Positions 42,801 to 51,800 of a stretch of DNA of 64,000 bases are shown here, piece by piece. The position numbers are program-made. Source of the stretch: Escherichia coli (GTDB lineage: Bacteria > Pseudomonadota > Gammaproteobacteria > Enterobacterales > Enterobacteriaceae); NCBI RefSeq assembly GCF_009931435.1, contig NZ_CP043414.1, one strand, 5' to 3'. The stretch's first letter is position 1. Every line of letters starts with the position of its first letter.

Positions 42801-45800
42801 GAAGGCACGGCATTCCAGCTCTTTAATCTGCAAGACGGGCATGAAGCCATCTGTGAAGTGCCCGCTGCCGATGGTTCCGTTCTTTTCACCCTGAAAGCGG
42901 CGCGTACTGGCAACACAATTACTGTGAATGGTGCGGGCGTGGCGAAGAACTGGACGCTGTGCTTGCGCAATGTTGTGAAAGTAAATGGTCTGCAAGGCGG
43001 TTCGCAGGCTGAAAGTGAGCAGGGGCTGGTGGTGACGCCTCAAGGGAATGCGCTGACAATTACGTTGTAATCTATTGAAGAATGCCGGATACGAATGGTT
43101 TTGTGTCGTATCCGGTAAATAATCTCACATCTGGTAATAAATATTTCTTCCATCGTATTTGCGAGCATGATCACGATTATTCATCGCGAAAATGTGATCT
43201 GTGCTGAAAAATATCCCTTAACCGCCTTGCTTTGTTTTATCACTGTCCGGATTACGGACAGATTTTAGTATTGTTGTGAAATTATTCTGCTTTATATTTA
43301 CCCTCAGAGATGGCAACTGAAGCTCTTCCTCATGGGGCTTCTTAATCTGTGATAAGGGTAAAAAATGCAAATGATTACCTCGCGACAAAACAGATTATTA
43401 CGATTCCTTCTACCACGAAGGGAATATACGACTATTGTTACGATTGCCGGCTATTTAAATGTTTCGGAAAAAACCATTCAACGTGATTTACGTTTACTTG
43501 AGCAATGGCTGGGGCAATGGAGAATAAATGTTGAGAAGCGTGCTGGCGCGGGTGTGATGTTAAGCGCGGAGAATATTGCTGATTTGCTGCATCTTGATCA
43601 TTTGTTGGTGGCAGAATGTGAAGAGATTGATGGTGTAATGAATAATGCCAGGCGCGTTAAAATAGCGTCGCAGTTATTAAGTGAAACACCGAATGAAACG
43701 TCGATCAGTAAATTGTCAGAACGCTACTTTATCAGCGGAGCCTCTATTGTTAATGACCTGAGAGTAATTGAGTCCTGGCTTGCGCCGTTGGGGTTATCGT
43801 TGATCCGCAGCCCAAGTGGTACGCATATTGAAGGTAGTGAAGGGCAAGTCCGACAGGCAATGGCATTACTGATTAACGGCATTATTAACCATAATGAGCC
43901 GCAAGGTGTCGTGTATTCACGTCTGGATCCCGGAAGTTATAAAGCATTAGTCCATTATTTTGGAGAGGAAGAAGTGTTATTTGTCCAGTCATTGTTACTG
44001 GATATGGAAAATGAATTAAGTTGGTCTTTGGGAGAACCTTATTACGTTAACATTTTTACTCACATCCTTATTATGATGTATCGCAACACGCACGGGAATG
44101 CGTTATCAAGAGAAGAAGATCAAACCAGGCAATATGATGAAAATATCTTTAATGTTGCCAGTCAGATGATTCATAAGATAGAACAACGAATTGCACATAC
44201 GTTGCCCGATGATGAAGTCTGGTTTATTTATCAATATATCATTTCATCAGGTGTGGCGATTGATGGACAAAAAGATGTTAGCATTATTTCACATATGCAG
44301 GCCAGCAATGAAGCGCGTCTGATTACCTGGCGTTTAATTACGGTATTCAGTGACATCGTGGACTGCGATTTTAGTGAAGACAGCGCATTATATGATGGCT
44401 TGTTGGTTCATATTAAGCCGCTGATTAACCGTTTAAATTATCGCATTCATATCCGTAATCCATTGCTGGAAGATATTAAAGCAGAATTAGCGGATGTCTG
44501 GCGGTTGACGCAATATGTGGTGAATCAGGTATTTAAAACCTGGGGTGAGAATGCAGTGAGCGAGGATGAAGTGGGTTACCTGACCGTTCATTTTCAGGCT
44601 GCGATGGAGCGGCAAATTGCCCGTAAACGTGTATTACTGGTCTGTTCAACCGGAATCGGAACTTCGCATCTACTGAAAAGCCGTATTCTGCGAGCATTTC
44701 CTGAATGGACGATTGTTGATGTTATTTCAGCAGCGAATTTATCACAGGTTTTGCCTGACAATATCGAACTGATTATTTCGACCATTAATTTGCCTACAGT
44801 CACTATGCCGGTCGCTTATGTTACCGCTTTTTTTAATGATGCCGATATTAAGCGGGTCACTGAAATGGTGATTACGGAAAAATTACATCATGCGACGTCT
44901 CGGGTCGTTGAAATTTAATGTCAGAATTTTATGAGGTATGACGAATGGACATAACAAAAATCCTGAATACGAATCGCGTTATTTTAGATATGCAAGCGAC
45001 GAATAAAGCGGAGGCGATTGAAGAATTAACTAATCTTCTCAAAAAAGATGGTGCGATCGATTGTCGGGAAACCTTTATTAAAGATGTCTGGCAGCGCGAA
45101 GCGGAAGGCTCGACTGGTTTTGAAAATCATATTGCGATCCCGCATGGTAAATCTTCAGCTGTGATTAATACTACGCTGGCAATTGGCCGTACCCGGCAGG
45201 ATATTCCCTGGGAAACGCTGGATGGCAGTAGCGTGCGCTGTATTATTTTATTTGCGGTACGTCTTGAAGATCAAAATACCACCCATATCCGTTTACTTTC
45301 CCAGGTCGCGGGCGCGCTGGCGGATGATGACATCATAGAACAATTGTTAGTTGAGACGAGTCCGCAAAAAATCATTGATCTCTTTAGTCAGTATGCACAA
45401 TCCGATGTCTGCTAAATAACAGGGAGTATGTCATGAATATTGTCTGTGTTGCCGCCTGTACGGCGGGTATTGCTCATACCTATATTGCTCGTGAAAAGTT
45501 AATCAAAGGAGCAAAAGCTCTGGGCCATACCATTAAAGTTGAAACCCAGGGAACCATTGGTACAGAAAATGAATTACAGGCGGCAGATATCTCTGCTGCT
45601 GACGTCGTGATTCTTGCTGTAGATGTGAAAATAAAAGGAGAAGAACGCTTCACCAATAAACGTATTGTGCGAGTAAAGACAGAGATCGTCATTAAATCGC
45701 CCGTTCAATTTCTTGAAAAGGTCGAAAAATCACTGGGAAACAAATGATCCTTATACTGGAGGGATCTTAATATGAAAGACAATAAAATTCCGGTTTCACA

Positions 45801-48800: not shown

Positions 48801-51800
48801 CTGCCCGACGCAAAAGTCGACATATCAACAATTTGTCTCATGCGTTGTGGCGCTTATCGAGCAGATTAGGCGGGACGTTCAACGACCGATGCTGACAGGG
48901 ATCGCCTTACCCGGCAGTATCTCGCCACTCACTGGCCTGATTAAAAATGCGAATATTCAGGTGATTAACGGTCATGCGTTACAGGCTGATTTGCAGCAAT
49001 TGCTTGGGCAACCGGTGGTGATAGCCAATGATGGTAACTGTTTCGCGCTATCAGAAGCTTGCGACGGTGCCGGGCAAGATTATGACGTGGTATTTGGTAT
49101 TACGCTTGGCACGGGCTGCGGCGGTGGCATTGCCATCAAGCAACGACCGTTTATAGGGGCCTGGGGAAATGCTGCCGAATGCGGTCATATCACGTTGCCA
49201 GGCTATACGGAGCAGGAAGATGGTCCATCAGTCAGTTGCTATTGCGGCAAACACAACTGCGTGGAGTCGTTTGTTTCCGGCAGCGGTTTTAGTGAACGCT
49301 ATCAACAGATGACTGGTAACTTGCTCACTCCTGCGGCGATTGTCACCCTGGCACAACGTGGTGATGCTTGTGCCATGCAGCAGGTGGCACGTTTTCGCCA
49401 ACAGCTTGCCCGCACGCTGGCAACCATCGTTAACGTTGTTGACCCTGGCGTGATTGTGATCGGCGGCGGGCTTTCGAATGTGGAACTGCTTATCACCGAT
49501 CTGAACGCAGAAGTCGCTCCACTGGTTTTCACCGATCAATTCACCACTCCCATTGTAAAAGCACAGCACGGCGACAGTAGCGGAATGCGTGGCGCTGCCT
49601 GGCTTGCTATGCGCAACGGAGAAGCCAATGAAACGCTCACAAATTAATTATGTTATTGATAAAGCACATGCCATTGCGCAGACCTTCCGCGTTTGTTTGC
49701 CTGAGTTCGCCTATTTTACGGTGGATGACTGGCTGCAGCGGGAACGGGATAACTGGCAAGAAGTAGTCGACTTACAGCTCGGTTGGGATATCACCGATTT
49801 TGGTCGTGGTGATTTCAACCAAACGGGACTAACACTGCTAACGATGCGCAACGGCGCGCTGGGGTCGGCGGCATATCCAAAACCGTATGCTGAGAAAATG
49901 TTGCAGATCCAACAAGATCAGCAGACTCCCTGGCATTTTCACACCCACAAAATGGAAGATATCCTCAATCGGGGCGGTGGAGACTTATGCATGCAGTTGG
50001 CCTGGGCCAACGAAGCCAATCTCTGTGATGATCAACGAGTCATTACCGTGAATGTTGATGGTCAGCGGCGTACCATGAAACCTGGTGAAACGCTGGTGTT
50101 AAAGCCGGGGCAGGGCATTTGCCTGCCGCCGCGTCTGTATCATCGCTTCTGGGCGGAAAAAGCGTTTGTTCTCGGCTGGGAAATTTCGATGGTAAATGAT
50201 GACCAACACGATAATTATTTTCTTGAGCCGGGAGGACGTTTTCCGGCGATAGAAGAAGATGAACCGGTGAAATGGTTATTGTGCAGTGAGTATGGAATTT
50301 TGCGCTAATAACGGGGAACGCTAGCGCTGATATCCGCTAGCGTCCTAATTTTTACTGCACCGGCTCCGTCGACGTAACTTCACCACTGGAAACTACGCCC
50401 GCATTCATGGTTTGAGTCACTTGCTGCTTTGCGGCATTCACGGCATGCAATTGCCCGCTAACCGTAGGTTTCAGCGGGACATTGACCTGAATATCGCCAC
50501 TGGCGGCAAGCTGAATATTGCCGTCGCCAGTCAACGGTAGTTCAGGCCATCCCCACTGTTGCAAAATATTCACCGGCACACCGCGTCCATTCAGGCTGAT
50601 ATGGGTCTGACGTTGTGGCGTTTGTGAAACACTGGCGGTGGCTTCCAGAATACCTTTTTCGGTAAATGCGCTCAGTTCGCTGATATTTACCGTACTGCTA
50701 TTGGCAGTCAGCGCCAGCGACGGGCGACGGACATCAACACGATTAAACGTCGCGGCGGCGGCATTCAGATTCACCGAACCACTCCAGACGCCCCATTTAT
50801 GATCGGTAACCAGCGTCAGATTCGCGCCGTAACCATCGAGCGCGGTGAGTTGCCACGGGAAGTCAGGGTTGATATCAATAATTAGATTGCGGCTGGCGCT
50901 AAATCTCTTCAGTTGCAGACTGTTTAACCAGCCGGGTGTCATTTCCATCCACAACTGTTGCCAGTTTTTCGGCAAGGTATATTCCAGCCCGGCAATTGCC
51001 GCATCATCAAGCAACAGCGTTTTCCCGTCACGCAACCAGTTCCCTGACGTTCTGACCATGCCACCTTCCCAGCGGCTGGTGAACTGGCGGAGCGCTACGC
51101 CCTGCGGGGAAAATTCCGCGTTTATAATAGGGTCAAATAAATGCAGCGAACCATAAATGAACTCGCTGGCGTTCATCGACAGTTTGCCTTCCTGTGTCTG
51201 CCAGTCATCTTTACTGAAGGTCATGTTGCGCAAGCTGAGATCGAGATCGGTCACCGCCCAGTCCGGGCCTTGCAGGCGAGCATCGATGACTTCCAGACGA
51301 CCAATCTGCAAGGACGGGACAGAGCGTAATGGTGCAAAGAAGTCAGTTAGCGATTTTTCGCTTTGTAGACGGATATCCGCCAGGCGCAGATTTTCCACCT
51401 GCCAGCTGCCGTCGGCGTTACGCTGCGCGTTTCCGGTTAATGTCCCGCGGGTGATGTCAGCACCCAGATTAGTCAGCGTAACGCGATCGTTATCAATACT
51501 GCCTTCAATCAGTACATTGGTAGCAGGAACATTATTGAGCGAAAGCGATCCGGCGCTGAATTGAATCTGCGCCTTCGTACCCAGCACTTTACCGGCTTCT
51601 GGTGACCACGGAACCACGCCGCCATTTACCCGTTGCGCGCTCAGTTTCCATTCGCTATTCGGGCTATTAAACGCCATATCACGCAGTTGCAGACGATCGG
51701 CTTTGAACGGCAGCGGCGCGGTCTGGTCGGTGAGATTCAGCGTCCCGTTTTCCAGCAGGATGGTATCGACATGGCGTGGTTCGGTCAGTTGCCGACTGCT

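Follow-up and report, generated by a model that had tools for sequence, protein, structure and literature searches.

The DNA between yicI and yicH in the Escherichia coli genome studied here (the window, 64,000 nt of contig NZ_CP043414.1, assembly GCF_009931435.1) is the frz operon, known already from extraintestinal pathogenic E. coli (ExPEC) of birds and humans. We read it as a chromosomal, non-mobile carbohydrate module of eight genes; taken jointly with the mechanism and the evolutionary history proposed below, we give this reading a probability of about 0.9.

Position and identity of the locus

In the ORF listing of the window, eight co-directional ORFs occupy positions 43365-50308 (+), exactly where a preliminary description of this DNA had placed them, between two conserved genes:

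40752-43070 (+), yicI, alpha-xylosidase, left conserved flank (ORF; PGAP name in syntenic loci)
50352-52061 (-), yicH, AsmA-family protein, right conserved flank (ORF; PGAP annotation in syntenic loci)

The yicI gene of the window shares 97-99% nucleotide identity with other E. coli copies. As the same description had held, yicI lies directly next to yicH in K-12: both K-12 (MG1655) and E. coli B proved to have an empty site, with a spacing of only 52 nt and one hairpin inside. Compared with the empty site, the window holds extra DNA at about 43118-50349 (7232 bp, 48.7% GC). Intergenic gaps of 11-80 nt within the eight-gene set fit a single operon. Comparison of occupied and empty sites revealed no integrase, transposase or direct repeats at the frz junctions, and no true plasmid copy was found, so that we regard frz as not mobile.

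The frz PCR primers of the literature, frz-FP (43770-43789, +) and frz-RP (44593-44612, -), both match inside gene 1 with 0 mismatches, and their product from the window, 843 bp, has the published amplicon size. A 7241-bp query was 99.0% identical, at 100% coverage, to the ExPEC/B2 strains 536, EC958 and NC101. The BEN2908 genome paper lists the locus as 'GR 27 yicH..yicI, 7227 bp, frz operon, 48.67% GC', and the operon of this ExPEC/APEC strain is the subject of Rouquet et al. (2009, J Bacteriol 191:4427). The window and BEN2908 loci have the position between yicI and yicH, the eight gene types and their order in common, and agree in size (7232 vs 7227 bp) and GC content (48.7 vs 48.67%); sequence divergence from the B2 ExPEC copies is about 1%. 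With the primers, the identity over 7.2 kb and the BEN2908 placement, the earlier attribution to frz of ExPEC is borne out, and K-12 does not carry these genes at this position. As judged from sequence, no functional difference from the BEN2908 operon is apparent, whereas the host background differs, the core genes flanking frz in the window not being B2-like.

Genes of the operon

The assignments made before (a regulator, the PTS components EIIA/B/C, a pair of class II aldolases, a ROK kinase and a cupin) were each confirmed by Pfam and NCBIfam:

43365-44918 (+), gene 1, PRD-containing transcriptional activator (FrzR), 517 aa (Pfam; PDB sequence hits)
44945-45415 (+), gene 2, PTS EIIA, fructose/mannitol type, 156 aa (PF00359, PTS_EIIA_2, 3.8e-35)
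45433-45747 (+), gene 3, PTS EIIB, fructose type, 104 aa (PF02302, PTS_IIB)
45772-46863 (+), gene 4, PTS EIIC, fructose family, 363 aa (TIGR01427)
46875-47726 (+), gene 5, class II ketose-bisphosphate aldolase 1, 283 aa (PF01116, F_bP_aldolase, 2.3e-75)
47807-48667 (+), gene 6, class II ketose-bisphosphate aldolase 2, 286 aa (PF01116, 1.2e-90)
48715-49647 (+), gene 7, ROK-family sugar kinase, 310 aa (PF00480, 1.1e-73)
49628-50308 (+), gene 8, cupin of the D-lyxose/D-mannose isomerase family, 226 aa (PF07385, Lyx_isomer, 6.2e-87)

Pfam resolves gene 1 into HTH_11, an Mga HTH, two PRDs and an EIIB(Gat/Lac)-like/PTS_IIB domain, and finds neither a CAT RNA-binding domain nor an EIIA domain. In a PDB sequence search the N-terminus matched AtxA/AcpB and the PRDs matched LicT. 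These domains identify the protein as a predicted DNA-binding PRD activator. The residues H233, H278, H349, H409 and C427 are invariant in an alignment across six genera. PGAP names gene 1 a 'BglG family transcription antiterminator'; as the CAT RNA-binding domain is missing, an antiterminator role was ruled out.

The three PTS proteins score above the NCBIfam cutoffs: EIIA with 127 bits against TIGR00848 (cutoff 103.5), EIIB with 100 bits against TIGR00829 (76.85) and EIIC with 312 bits against TIGR01427 (157.55). Gene 4 is the 'frz orf4' of the APEC typing scheme, with the literature name 'PTS fructose transporter subunit IIC'. The two aldolases are only 32% identical to each other. Aldolase 2 exceeds the cutoff of NF006042 (524.8 bits, cutoff 405) and keeps the zinc-ligand positions when aligned to 1RV8; aldolase 1 is divergent and stays under all NCBIfam equivalog cutoffs, and in its alignment to AgaY (1GVF) the zinc/catalytic positions (D-H, H and H) and the 'vegelg' E are retained.

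For the last two genes we correct the starts of the ORF listing (48682-49647 and 49589-50308, respectively). For the ROK gene the likeliest start is ATG 48715, which has an AAGGAA Shine-Dalgarno sequence and is identical to the PGAP start in strain 536; for the cupin gene it is ATG 49628, giving a ROK/cupin overlap of 20 nt. The kinase carries the DIGGTK and CxCGxxxCxE motifs in alignment with NagK, its top NCBIfam match being the fructokinase PRK09557 (318.7 bits, cutoff 443). The cupin matches the D-lyxose isomerase of E. coli O157 (PDB 3KMH/3MPB, 1.9e-64) along its full length, with conserved H-F-H...K.ED...H motifs and scores 271 bits against NF051472 (equivalog cutoff 350); blastn found no second E. 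coli gene related to it. Since the scores of ROK kinase, cupin and aldolase 1 lie below the NCBIfam equivalog cutoffs, their exact specificities are not readable from homology.

Control region and hairpins

The following elements were located around and within the operon:

43083-43117 (+), hairpin 3' of yicI (-18.3 kcal/mol, z = -5.0; comparison of occupied and empty sites)
43158-43298 (+), conserved frz control region with (near-)invariant blocks in the alignment of six genera
43160-43175 (+), CRP-like motif TGCGA-N6-TCACG (conservation)
43193-43197 (+), CRP-like motif TGTGA (conservation)
43243-43261 (+), inverted repeat CTGTCCGGATTACGGACAG (conservation; stem-loop in hairpin scan and folding)
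43271-43276 (+), candidate -35 element TTGTTG (conservation)
43293-43298 (+), candidate -10 element TATATT (conservation)
48672-48695 (+), internal stem-loop AGAAGGGCGGG-GUGA-CCCGCCUUUU, just 3' of aldolase 2 (-20.7 kcal/mol, z = -4.8)
50314-50346 (+), terminator-like hairpin and T-run closing the operon (scan hit; -19.1 kcal/mol, z = -3.7)

A form related to the hairpin behind yicI is present at the empty K-12/B-type site, and the extra DNA begins just 3' of it. From their conservation we infer that the blocks of the control region may include a promoter, an operator and CRP-like sites; the generic promoter scan did not list the candidate promoter. The GGCGGG/CCCGCC stem of the internal hairpin is invariant, and its loop variable, at seven loci from five genera with or without the ROK gene. 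It is a candidate for a partial terminator or an mRNA-stabilising hairpin. The terminator hairpin previously proposed to bound the operon was recovered together with its T-run; a distance of 6 nt separates it from the yicH stop codon, and it is confined to the occupied allele, the empty site being without it.

Distribution within E. coli

Full-length frz was found in 1601 of 5426 complete E. coli genomes (about 30%), in keeping with its earlier designation as a strain-variable module; in the genomes without full frz the match is confined to the ends in yicI or yicH. Every group B2 ExPEC strain tested has the operon. The BEN2908 paper reports it as present in CFT073, UTI89, RS218, IHE3034, APEC O1, LF82, NRG857c and E2348/69, and as absent from K-12, O157, 042, 55989 and H10407.

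The claim that frz indicates the phylogenetic background of its host holds in the negative sense only. The presence of frz does rule out K-12, E. coli B, O157, 042 and the B1 strains of the BEN2908 paper. However, it is no proof of a B2 or ExPEC host, because the probiotic Nissle 1917 and CE10 also have frz, and the core genes flanking it in the window are only about 97% identical to those of the B2 strain 536 (at most 98.3-98.5% to any complete genome). Divergence between window and strain 536 is lower in frz (1.08%) than in the flanks (3.01%), also at third codon positions (2.2% vs 7.5%). In RMDEC465, the closest relative, the ROK gene is frameshifted. In strain HS-02, a remnant consisting of the promoter and 266 nt of gene 1 shows that deletion does occur at the yicI/yicH site.

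Related loci and origin of the operon

The frz gene order was found between yicI and yicH in at least nine Citrobacter species, Phytobacter ursingii, two Superficieibacter and an Escherichia species other than E. coli; the operons of Phytobacter diazotrophicus and Kosakonia adjoin yicH. To our knowledge, orthologous yicI-frz-yicH loci have not been described in Citrobacter, Phytobacter, Kosakonia, Superficieibacter or Buttiauxella. The loci of these genera (for Citrobacter, the freundii complex) share with the window the gene order, mostly the flanks, and the conserved promoter region and internal hairpin, at 70-97% protein identity. In Citrobacter, Superficieibacter and Buttiauxella most copies are of a seven-gene form without the ROK gene, and one Citrobacter copy, unlike the window, has an ERIC-like repeat in the leader.

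We infer that the locus is old in the Enterobacteriaceae. Given the yicI-frz-yicH arrangement with its conserved promoter region in Citrobacter, Phytobacter and Superficieibacter, it was probably retained here and lost by deletion in K-12-type E. coli. The preliminary description had called the operon inserted, which is right insofar as it is extra relative to K-12, but the presence of the same operon between yicI and yicH in other genera makes the K-12 state the probable deletion.

Alternatively, frz could be an islet that was acquired horizontally at yicI/yicH in a B2/ExPEC ancestor and then spread between E. coli lineages by homologous recombination of the flanks, a scenario we consider possible but doubtful. 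It would fit with the fact that roughly 70% of E. coli have no frz, among them K-12, B, O157, 042 and B1 strains, and with alleles that are two to three times less diverged within E. coli than the flanking core genes. A scan of representative E. albertii and E. fergusonii genomes detected no frzR, which also speaks for acquisition. So does the mismatch between frz gene tree and flank tree across genera: the frz proteins of Citrobacter and Phytobacter resemble each other (FrzR 91% identical) more than those of E. coli (77-78%), whereas in the flank genes E. coli is nearest to Citrobacter. This mismatch and the low frz divergence in E. coli require a change in rate or recombination/transfer. On the other hand, Citrobacter, Phytobacter and Superficieibacter use the same slot, with divergence similar to that of the flanks (E. 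coli vs Citrobacter proteins: frz 77-96%, flanks 82-95%). Genes 1 to 3 and the spacer before them are rich in AT (38-44% GC), a point for acquisition, but the gene-by-gene GC pattern is identical in Citrobacter and Phytobacter and is therefore a property of the frz genes. The junctions without integrase, transposase or direct repeat, the failure to find a plasmid copy and the independent deletion remnant in HS-02 likewise speak against an islet, and the copy of the other Escherichia species, 5.6% diverged and thus more than its flanks, argues for long residence in the genus.

Proposed function and comparison with known systems

For the operon we propose that a hexose of the fructose/mannose/tagatose kind would be imported and phosphorylated by the Frz PTS through the relay PEP, EI, HPr, EIIA, EIIB and EIIC. 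The sugar phosphate would be converted to a ketohexose 1,6-bisphosphate by a housekeeping kinase, FruK or PfkA/B, invoked because the operon is without a PfkB-type kinase; the two zinc-dependent class II aldolases would then cleave it to DHAP and glyceraldehyde 3-phosphate. In a side branch for unphosphorylated sugar, the lyxose/mannose-type cupin isomerase may convert aldose to ketose, which the ROK kinase would phosphorylate. Transcription would start at the cross-genus conserved promoter and be activated by the operon's own PRD regulator, and phosphorylation of the conserved histidines and the EIIB-like cysteine of FrzR by HPr and Frz EIIA/EIIB could couple expression to substrate availability and PTS state. 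Three observations count against the pathway: the literature searched names no sugar substrate, the required kinase is not encoded by the operon, and most Citrobacter copies do without the ROK gene.

The literature reports, with mutants of BEN2908, that frz affects fitness under oxygen restriction and in late stationary phase (LB), growth in serum, adhesion and invasion, and biases the type 1 fimbrial switch to ON. This raises the question of whether frz is mainly a sensor or regulator and less a nutritional pathway, in which PTS phosphoryl flux and FrzR report the metabolic state and control, e.g., the type 1 fimbrial switch, with little carbon flow. The reported phenotypes are indeed regulatory or fitness-related (fim switch orientation, adhesion, invasion, late stationary phase), the literature searched reports no growth substrate, and FrzR has the N-terminal HTH/Mga architecture of the virulence regulators AtxA and AcpB. 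We nevertheless think this unlikely: four enzymes with intact catalytic motifs are conserved in six genera, mostly non-pathogens, and both the close packing of the genes and the conservation of the internal hairpin point to tuned enzyme expression. Moreover, in the 2009 study both the activator and the metabolic enzymes reportedly had a part in the phenotypes. That frz is cryptic or in decay, a fructose-like PTS cluster in the manner of K-12 frv, frw and fry with no current function in the window strain, is very improbable. In favour are its frequent loss in E. coli, the ROK frameshift in RMDEC465 and the fact that Frz proteins have diverged more in Escherichia than among other genera. Against it, each of the eight genes has an intact reading frame in the window, the residues for catalysis and phosphorylation are conserved, BEN2908 mutants have published phenotypes, and frz is less variable than its flanks within E. 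coli.

Like frz, the K-12 systems frvABXR, frwCBD, fryABC and FruBKA have fructose-family EIIA, EIIB and EIIC, partly as separate polypeptides. Among the best NCBIfam matches of frz are FruA (298.6 bits) and the models for fructose-like IIB and IIC, but in comparison with these clusters all equivalog scores are far under the cutoffs. None of the K-12 frv, frw, fry and fru clusters is known to bring together a pair of class II aldolases, a ROK kinase and a lyxose-isomerase cupin. The proposed route resembles the tag, gat and aga/kba pathways (D-tagatose, galactitol, N-acetylgalactosamine), which lead from a PTS via a ketohexose phosphate and the 1,6-bisphosphate to a class II aldolase, the second phosphate being supplied in gat and aga by a housekeeping phosphofructokinase. 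Frz differs from these pathways in missing the PfkB kinase. AgaY/KbaY is among the best solved relatives of both Frz aldolases. Identity is only moderate, and the scores stay below the equivalog cutoffs for GatY, KbaY and tagatose aldolase. The second aldolase of frz belongs to PF01116 proper and is not a GatZ/KbaZ-type partner.

FrzR shares the order HTH, Mga-like HTH, PRD1, PRD2 and EIIB(Gat)-like domain with MtlR/LicR/ManR-type PRD activators and Mga/AtxA-like regulators, but its 517 aa end after the EIIB domain, without the C-terminal EIIA(Mtl)-like domain of MtlR/LicR/ManR. The cupin has the Pfam family, length and metal/substrate motifs of the D-lyxose (D-mannose) isomerase EcSI/Z5688 of O157:H7, of which it is a paralogue, encoded by another gene in another genomic context.

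Identity and layout of the operon

The eight plus-strand genes at 43365-50308 between yicI and yicH are the frz operon, an already known and well-annotated accessory operon that the preliminary description had rightly recognised. The ORF listing together with Pfam and NCBIfam matches confirmed its set of regulator, PTS, aldolase, kinase and cupin genes. The original description reportedly lists a PTS activator, EIIA, EIIB, EIIC, two class II aldolases, a ROK kinase and a cupin, and the window has this same eight-gene order. Gaps between the genes are 11-80 nt long and the last two genes overlap. 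For the ROK and cupin genes, the starts given here most likely replace those of the ORF listing.

Genes and structural elements of the frz locus
40752-43070, plus strand: yicI, left flank of frz
43083-43117: hairpin right after yicI
43365-44918, plus strand: FrzR, the PRD regulator
44945-45415, plus strand: EIIA
45433-45747, plus strand: EIIB
45772-46863, plus strand: EIIC
46875-47726, plus strand: aldolase 1
47807-48667, plus strand: aldolase 2
48672-48695: stem-loop right after aldolase 2, -20.7 kcal/mol
48715, plus strand: most likely ATG start of the ROK kinase gene, with an AAGGAA ribosome site (PGAP start identical in strain 536)
49628, plus strand: most likely ATG start of the cupin gene (226 aa), overlapping the ROK gene by 20 nt
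50314-50346: hairpin with T-run after the last frz gene, -19.1 kcal/mol
50352-52061, minus strand: yicH, right flank of frz

Four independent lines agree on this identity. The frz PCR primers, with sequences taken from the typing paper, match without any mismatch at 43770-43789 (plus) and 44593-44612 (minus), and the predicted product of 843 bp has the published amplicon size. The extraintestinal pathogenic (ExPEC) strains 536, EC958 and NC101 are 99.0% identical across the full length of 7241 bp. The genome paper of BEN2908, the strain in which frz was first described, lists the operon as region GR 27 (yicH..yicI, 7227 bp, 48.67% GC), 99.5-100% identical to CFT073, UTI89 and others; GR 27 was scored as present in APEC O1, IMT5155, RS218, IHE3034, UTI89, CFT073, LF82, NRG857c and E2348/69, and as absent from K-12, O157:H7, 042, 55989, H10407 and others. 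Finally, the typing marker "frz orf4" is a PTS fructose IIC, and the fourth gene of the window operon is a fructose-type EIIC. The expected similarity to frz was found, the terminator hairpin proposed to bound the operon is present, and K-12 MG1655 lacks these genes at this position, with yicI and yicH adjacent.

Since frz is a virulence-associated marker in APEC/ExPEC typing with published fitness and adhesion phenotypes, its recognition annotates the strain as carrying a known accessory metabolic module; the value is mainly descriptive. According to the literature, frz promotes fitness when oxygen is restricted and in late stationary phase, favours growth in serum and increases type 1 fimbriae. 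What we add to the known operon is incremental: its cross-genus synteny, a seven-gene form without the ROK gene, a conserved hairpin and control region, and revised annotations of regulator and cupin.

Inserted or retained?

In E. coli B and K-12 MG1655 the site is empty, with 52 nt between yicI and yicH. Relative to it, the window has 7232 bp of additional DNA at about 43118-50349 (48.7% GC); the hairpin following yicI is common to occupied and empty sites according to the junction comparison. A genomic island or mobile element was considered and rejected: within 43071-50351 there is no integrase, transposase, flanking direct repeat or tRNA target, and a plasmid search with frz gave no genuine plasmid copy, its matches being one mislabelled chromosome and one 607-bp fragment. 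The latter is a piece of the regulator gene (window ~43886-44492, 99.3% identical) located at 86250-86856 of the 93-kb conjugative E. coli plasmid NZ_MN335640.1.

To survey other genera, we scanned one genome per bacterial species for FrzR and then ran tblastn with all twelve proteins of the region. The order yicI-frz-yicH recurs in at least nine Citrobacter species, Phytobacter ursingii, two Superficieibacter species and one further Escherichia species; in Phytobacter diazotrophicus and one Kosakonia, frz adjoins yicH, and its surroundings are different again in Buttiauxella and in further Kosakonia. The ROK gene is kept in Escherichia, Kosakonia, Phytobacter and Citrobacter sp. FP75. A seven-gene form, with the cupin directly behind aldolase 2, is found in most Citrobacter copies, in both Superficieibacter and in Buttiauxella.

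This synteny argues for loss in K-12-type strains. The operon had been described as inserted, which holds insofar as there is extra DNA relative to the K-12-type empty site; the direction of the event is probably better read the other way. Between E. coli and Citrobacter, frz has diverged much like its flanks (protein identity 77-96% versus 82-95%, nucleotide identity 74-85% versus 76-85%). GC content is low in the first three frz genes and high in the rest, and since the same pattern is seen in Citrobacter and Phytobacter, it is not a sign of recent import. E. coli HS-02 (NZ_CP172818.1, locus 3766-4031) retains the frz promoter plus the initial 266 nt of the regulator gene, joined to a slightly truncated yicH; this remnant is an independent deletion scar at this locus. 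Because of the flank-like divergence, the shared GC pattern, the lack of mobility genes, repeats and plasmid copies, and the HS-02 scar, we favour an old locus that was retained here and lost in K-12-type strains, with a probability of roughly 0.6.

Acquisition of frz in E. coli is rather unlikely by comparison, as the same yicI/yicH slot and flank-like divergence in other genera, the missing mobility genes and the HS-02 scar speak against it. Two observations point towards it nonetheless. First, FrzR is 91% identical between Citrobacter and Phytobacter, and either is only 77-78% identical to that of E. coli, unlike the flank proteins, which place E. coli closest to Citrobacter; this mismatch could stem from an early transfer or from a higher rate of evolution in Escherichia, a genus in which loss of frz is frequent. 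Second, frz is less diverged than its flanks within E. coli: relative to strain 536, the window differs by 1.08% in frz and 3.01% in the flanks (third codon positions 2.2% versus 7.5%). This difference suggests that the occupied allele moved between E. coli lineages by homologous recombination.

Retention and loss can be combined with the functional predictions below into one reading, to which we give even odds: frz would be ancient, residing at yicI/yicH before Escherichia, Citrobacter, Phytobacter and Superficieibacter split, deleted in most E. coli lineages and reshuffled by recombination; its substrate would be a rare hexose, processed by an isomerase of the lyxose/mannose type and by two aldolases that differ in stereospecificity, with the conserved hairpin tuning the distal genes. 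If this is true, frz is not an ExPEC-specific acquisition.

Distribution in E. coli and host background

Full-length frz is present in 1601 of 5426 complete E. coli genomes (29.5%) and fragmentary in five more; the rest match only the yicI or yicH ends. The operon was also proposed to indicate the phylogenetic background of the host. Its presence does exclude a K-12, B, O157 or B1-type background, but carriage alone is no proof of a B2/ExPEC host, because the probiotic strain Nissle 1917 and CE10 carry frz too, and the flanks differ by about 3% from those of the B2 strain 536. On the right-hand side of frz, the core genes (13.6 kb) reach at most 98.3-98.5% identity to any of the 5426 genomes, and the flanks differ by 1.7% from RMDEC465, the best overall relative. 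By these distances, the host appears to come from an E. coli lineage of which few genomes have been sampled. Unlike its flanks (39360-43070 and 50352-64000), frz itself is 99.0-99.5% identical to many E. coli genomes and looks recombined relative to them. In RMDEC465 (locus 361-1743 and 9716-10647), PGAP annotates the frz ROK gene as frameshifted and yicJ with an internal stop; both genes are intact in the window.

The regulator FrzR and its control region

FrzR (517 aa) contains an HTH_11 domain, a Mga-type HTH, two PRDs and an EIIB-like domain according to Pfam and NCBIfam. The two HTH domains are of the DNA-binding type and resemble those of Mga, AtxA and AcpB. PRD histidines H233, H278, H349 and H409 as well as C427 of the EIIB-like domain are invariant across six genera. 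The PGAP name, BglG family transcription antiterminator, was rejected: the protein has HTH domains in place of a CAT RNA-binding domain (no CAT_RBD match) and scores only 23-65 bits against NCBIfam equivalogs whose cutoffs are 300-500. An Rfam scan of 42900-50500 at E <= 1 gave no match. The leader thus lacks known riboswitches and other known RNA elements, a further point against antitermination. Because of the HTH domains, the absent CAT domain, the Rfam result and the invariant PRD histidines and cysteine, we classify FrzR as a predicted PRD-containing activator of the MtlR/LicR/ManR kind. These activators carry C-terminal EIIB(Gat)-like and EIIA(Mtl)-like domains, whereas FrzR keeps only the former; with 517 residues in all and no EIIA(Mtl)-like domain detected, it appears to be a shortened variant.

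The spacer upstream of frz (294 nt) contains conserved blocks in the six-genus alignment.

Candidate control elements upstream of frz
~138 and ~105 nt upstream of the guessed transcription start: two CRP-like motifs
43243-43261: perfect 7-bp inverted repeat, centred ~53 nt upstream of the guessed start
43271-43276: candidate -35 element TTGTTG
43293-43298: candidate -10 element TATATT
near 43305: guessed transcription start
43353-43359: ribosome site TAAGGGT, a conserved block

The -35/-10 pair is plausible from the cross-genus alignment; a generic promoter scan did not list it. The assignment of the CRP-like motifs is held loosely because of their unusual spacing, and the inverted repeat is a candidate FrzR operator. 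In Citrobacter portucalensis, the leader has an insertion of ~130 nt (locus coordinates ~9870-10000, alignment columns 270-400) which we take to resemble an ERIC/IRU repeat.

PTS proteins, enzymes and proposed pathway

EIIA, EIIB and EIIC are assigned as separate proteins of the fructose (Fru) PTS family, as all three exceed their TIGRFAM thresholds (TIGR00848, 127 versus 103.5; TIGR00829, 100 versus 76.85; TIGR01427, 312.4 versus 157.55); none reaches the FruA, Frw or MngA equivalog cutoffs in NCBIfam. Both aldolases match PF01116 (254 and 304 bits), with a mutual identity of only 32%, and both keep the D-H, H and H zinc/catalytic positions in an alignment to AgaY (1GVF) and 1RV8. The PF01116 membership and intact zinc ligands of both led us to reject the idea that one is a non-catalytic GatZ/KbaZ-like partner. 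Aldolase 2 passes NF006042 (524.8, cutoff 405), and aldolase 1 stays below every equivalog and subfamily cutoff of NCBIfam.

The stem of the stem-loop following aldolase 2 (GGCGGG/CCCGCC) is invariant across five genera, with or without a downstream ROK gene, and its loop is variable. This element probably either limits how much transcription continues into the distal genes or makes the upstream mRNA more stable.

The ROK kinase matches PF00480 (248.8 bits), shows the ATP motif LDIGGTK and the zinc motif CYCGKHNCVE (CxCGxxGCxE-type) in the alignment to NagK, and scores below the cutoff of fructokinase PRK09557 (318.7, cutoff 443). The cupin matches PF07385 (Lyx_isomer) end to end (290.9 bits, cutoff 20.8) and the solved O157:H7 enzyme 3KMH/3MPB (1.9e-64) with conserved metal-site motifs, and remains below the cutoff of equivalog NF051472 (271, cutoff 350). 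It is thus a putative isomerase of the D-lyxose/D-mannose isomerase family. When the cupin gene was compared with E. coli genomes by blastn in distant mode, no second relative of it turned up; in its DNA, the O157 paralogue Z5688 has diverged too far for such a search.

From this parts list and the conserved catalytic and regulatory residues, the following pathway can be proposed. Frz EIIABC would import and phosphorylate a hexose of the fructose/mannose/tagatose kind, judging by the protein families, and a housekeeping kinase (FruK or PfkA/B) would form the 1,6-bisphosphate, as in the galactitol and N-acetylgalactosamine pathways. The two aldolases would split this into triose phosphates, and the isomerase and ROK kinase could allow free aldoses or ketoses to enter this pathway as well. 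FrzR would activate the promoter when phosphorylated by HPr and not by idle Frz EIIA/EIIB. A rival to this scheme is a mainly sensory role of frz. Publications retrieved by our literature search do not name a frz substrate, and a query for frz combined with cupin or ROK gave nothing relevant. The cross-genus synteny, the family assignment of the cupin and the corrected antiterminator label may help in the hunt for the substrate.

The neighbouring selC island

A large island occupies 1-38973 at the tRNA-Sec gene selC (38973-39067, minus strand), just upstream of yicJ, and is an element separate from frz.

Features of the selC island
490-2124: type I restriction-modification methylase
8015-9517: ORF of 500 aa with a sulfatase-family domain at residues 193-446
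11640-12500, minus strand: class A beta-lactamase
13369-16407 and 30535-33501: two Tn3-family transposases
27289-28299, minus strand: aadA-type adenylyltransferase
34146-34805, minus strand: chloramphenicol acetyltransferase
37489-38673, minus strand: P4-type tyrosine integrase

BLAST additionally identified merA, intI1 and IS1326/Tni genes, which together with the resistance genes and Tn3-family transposases mark a Tn21-like multiresistance region inside the island. Just one complete genome, ETEC1738, covers 96% of 20000-43000. The ORF at 8015-9517 could encode a sulfatase or a phosphoethanolamine-transferase-like protein.
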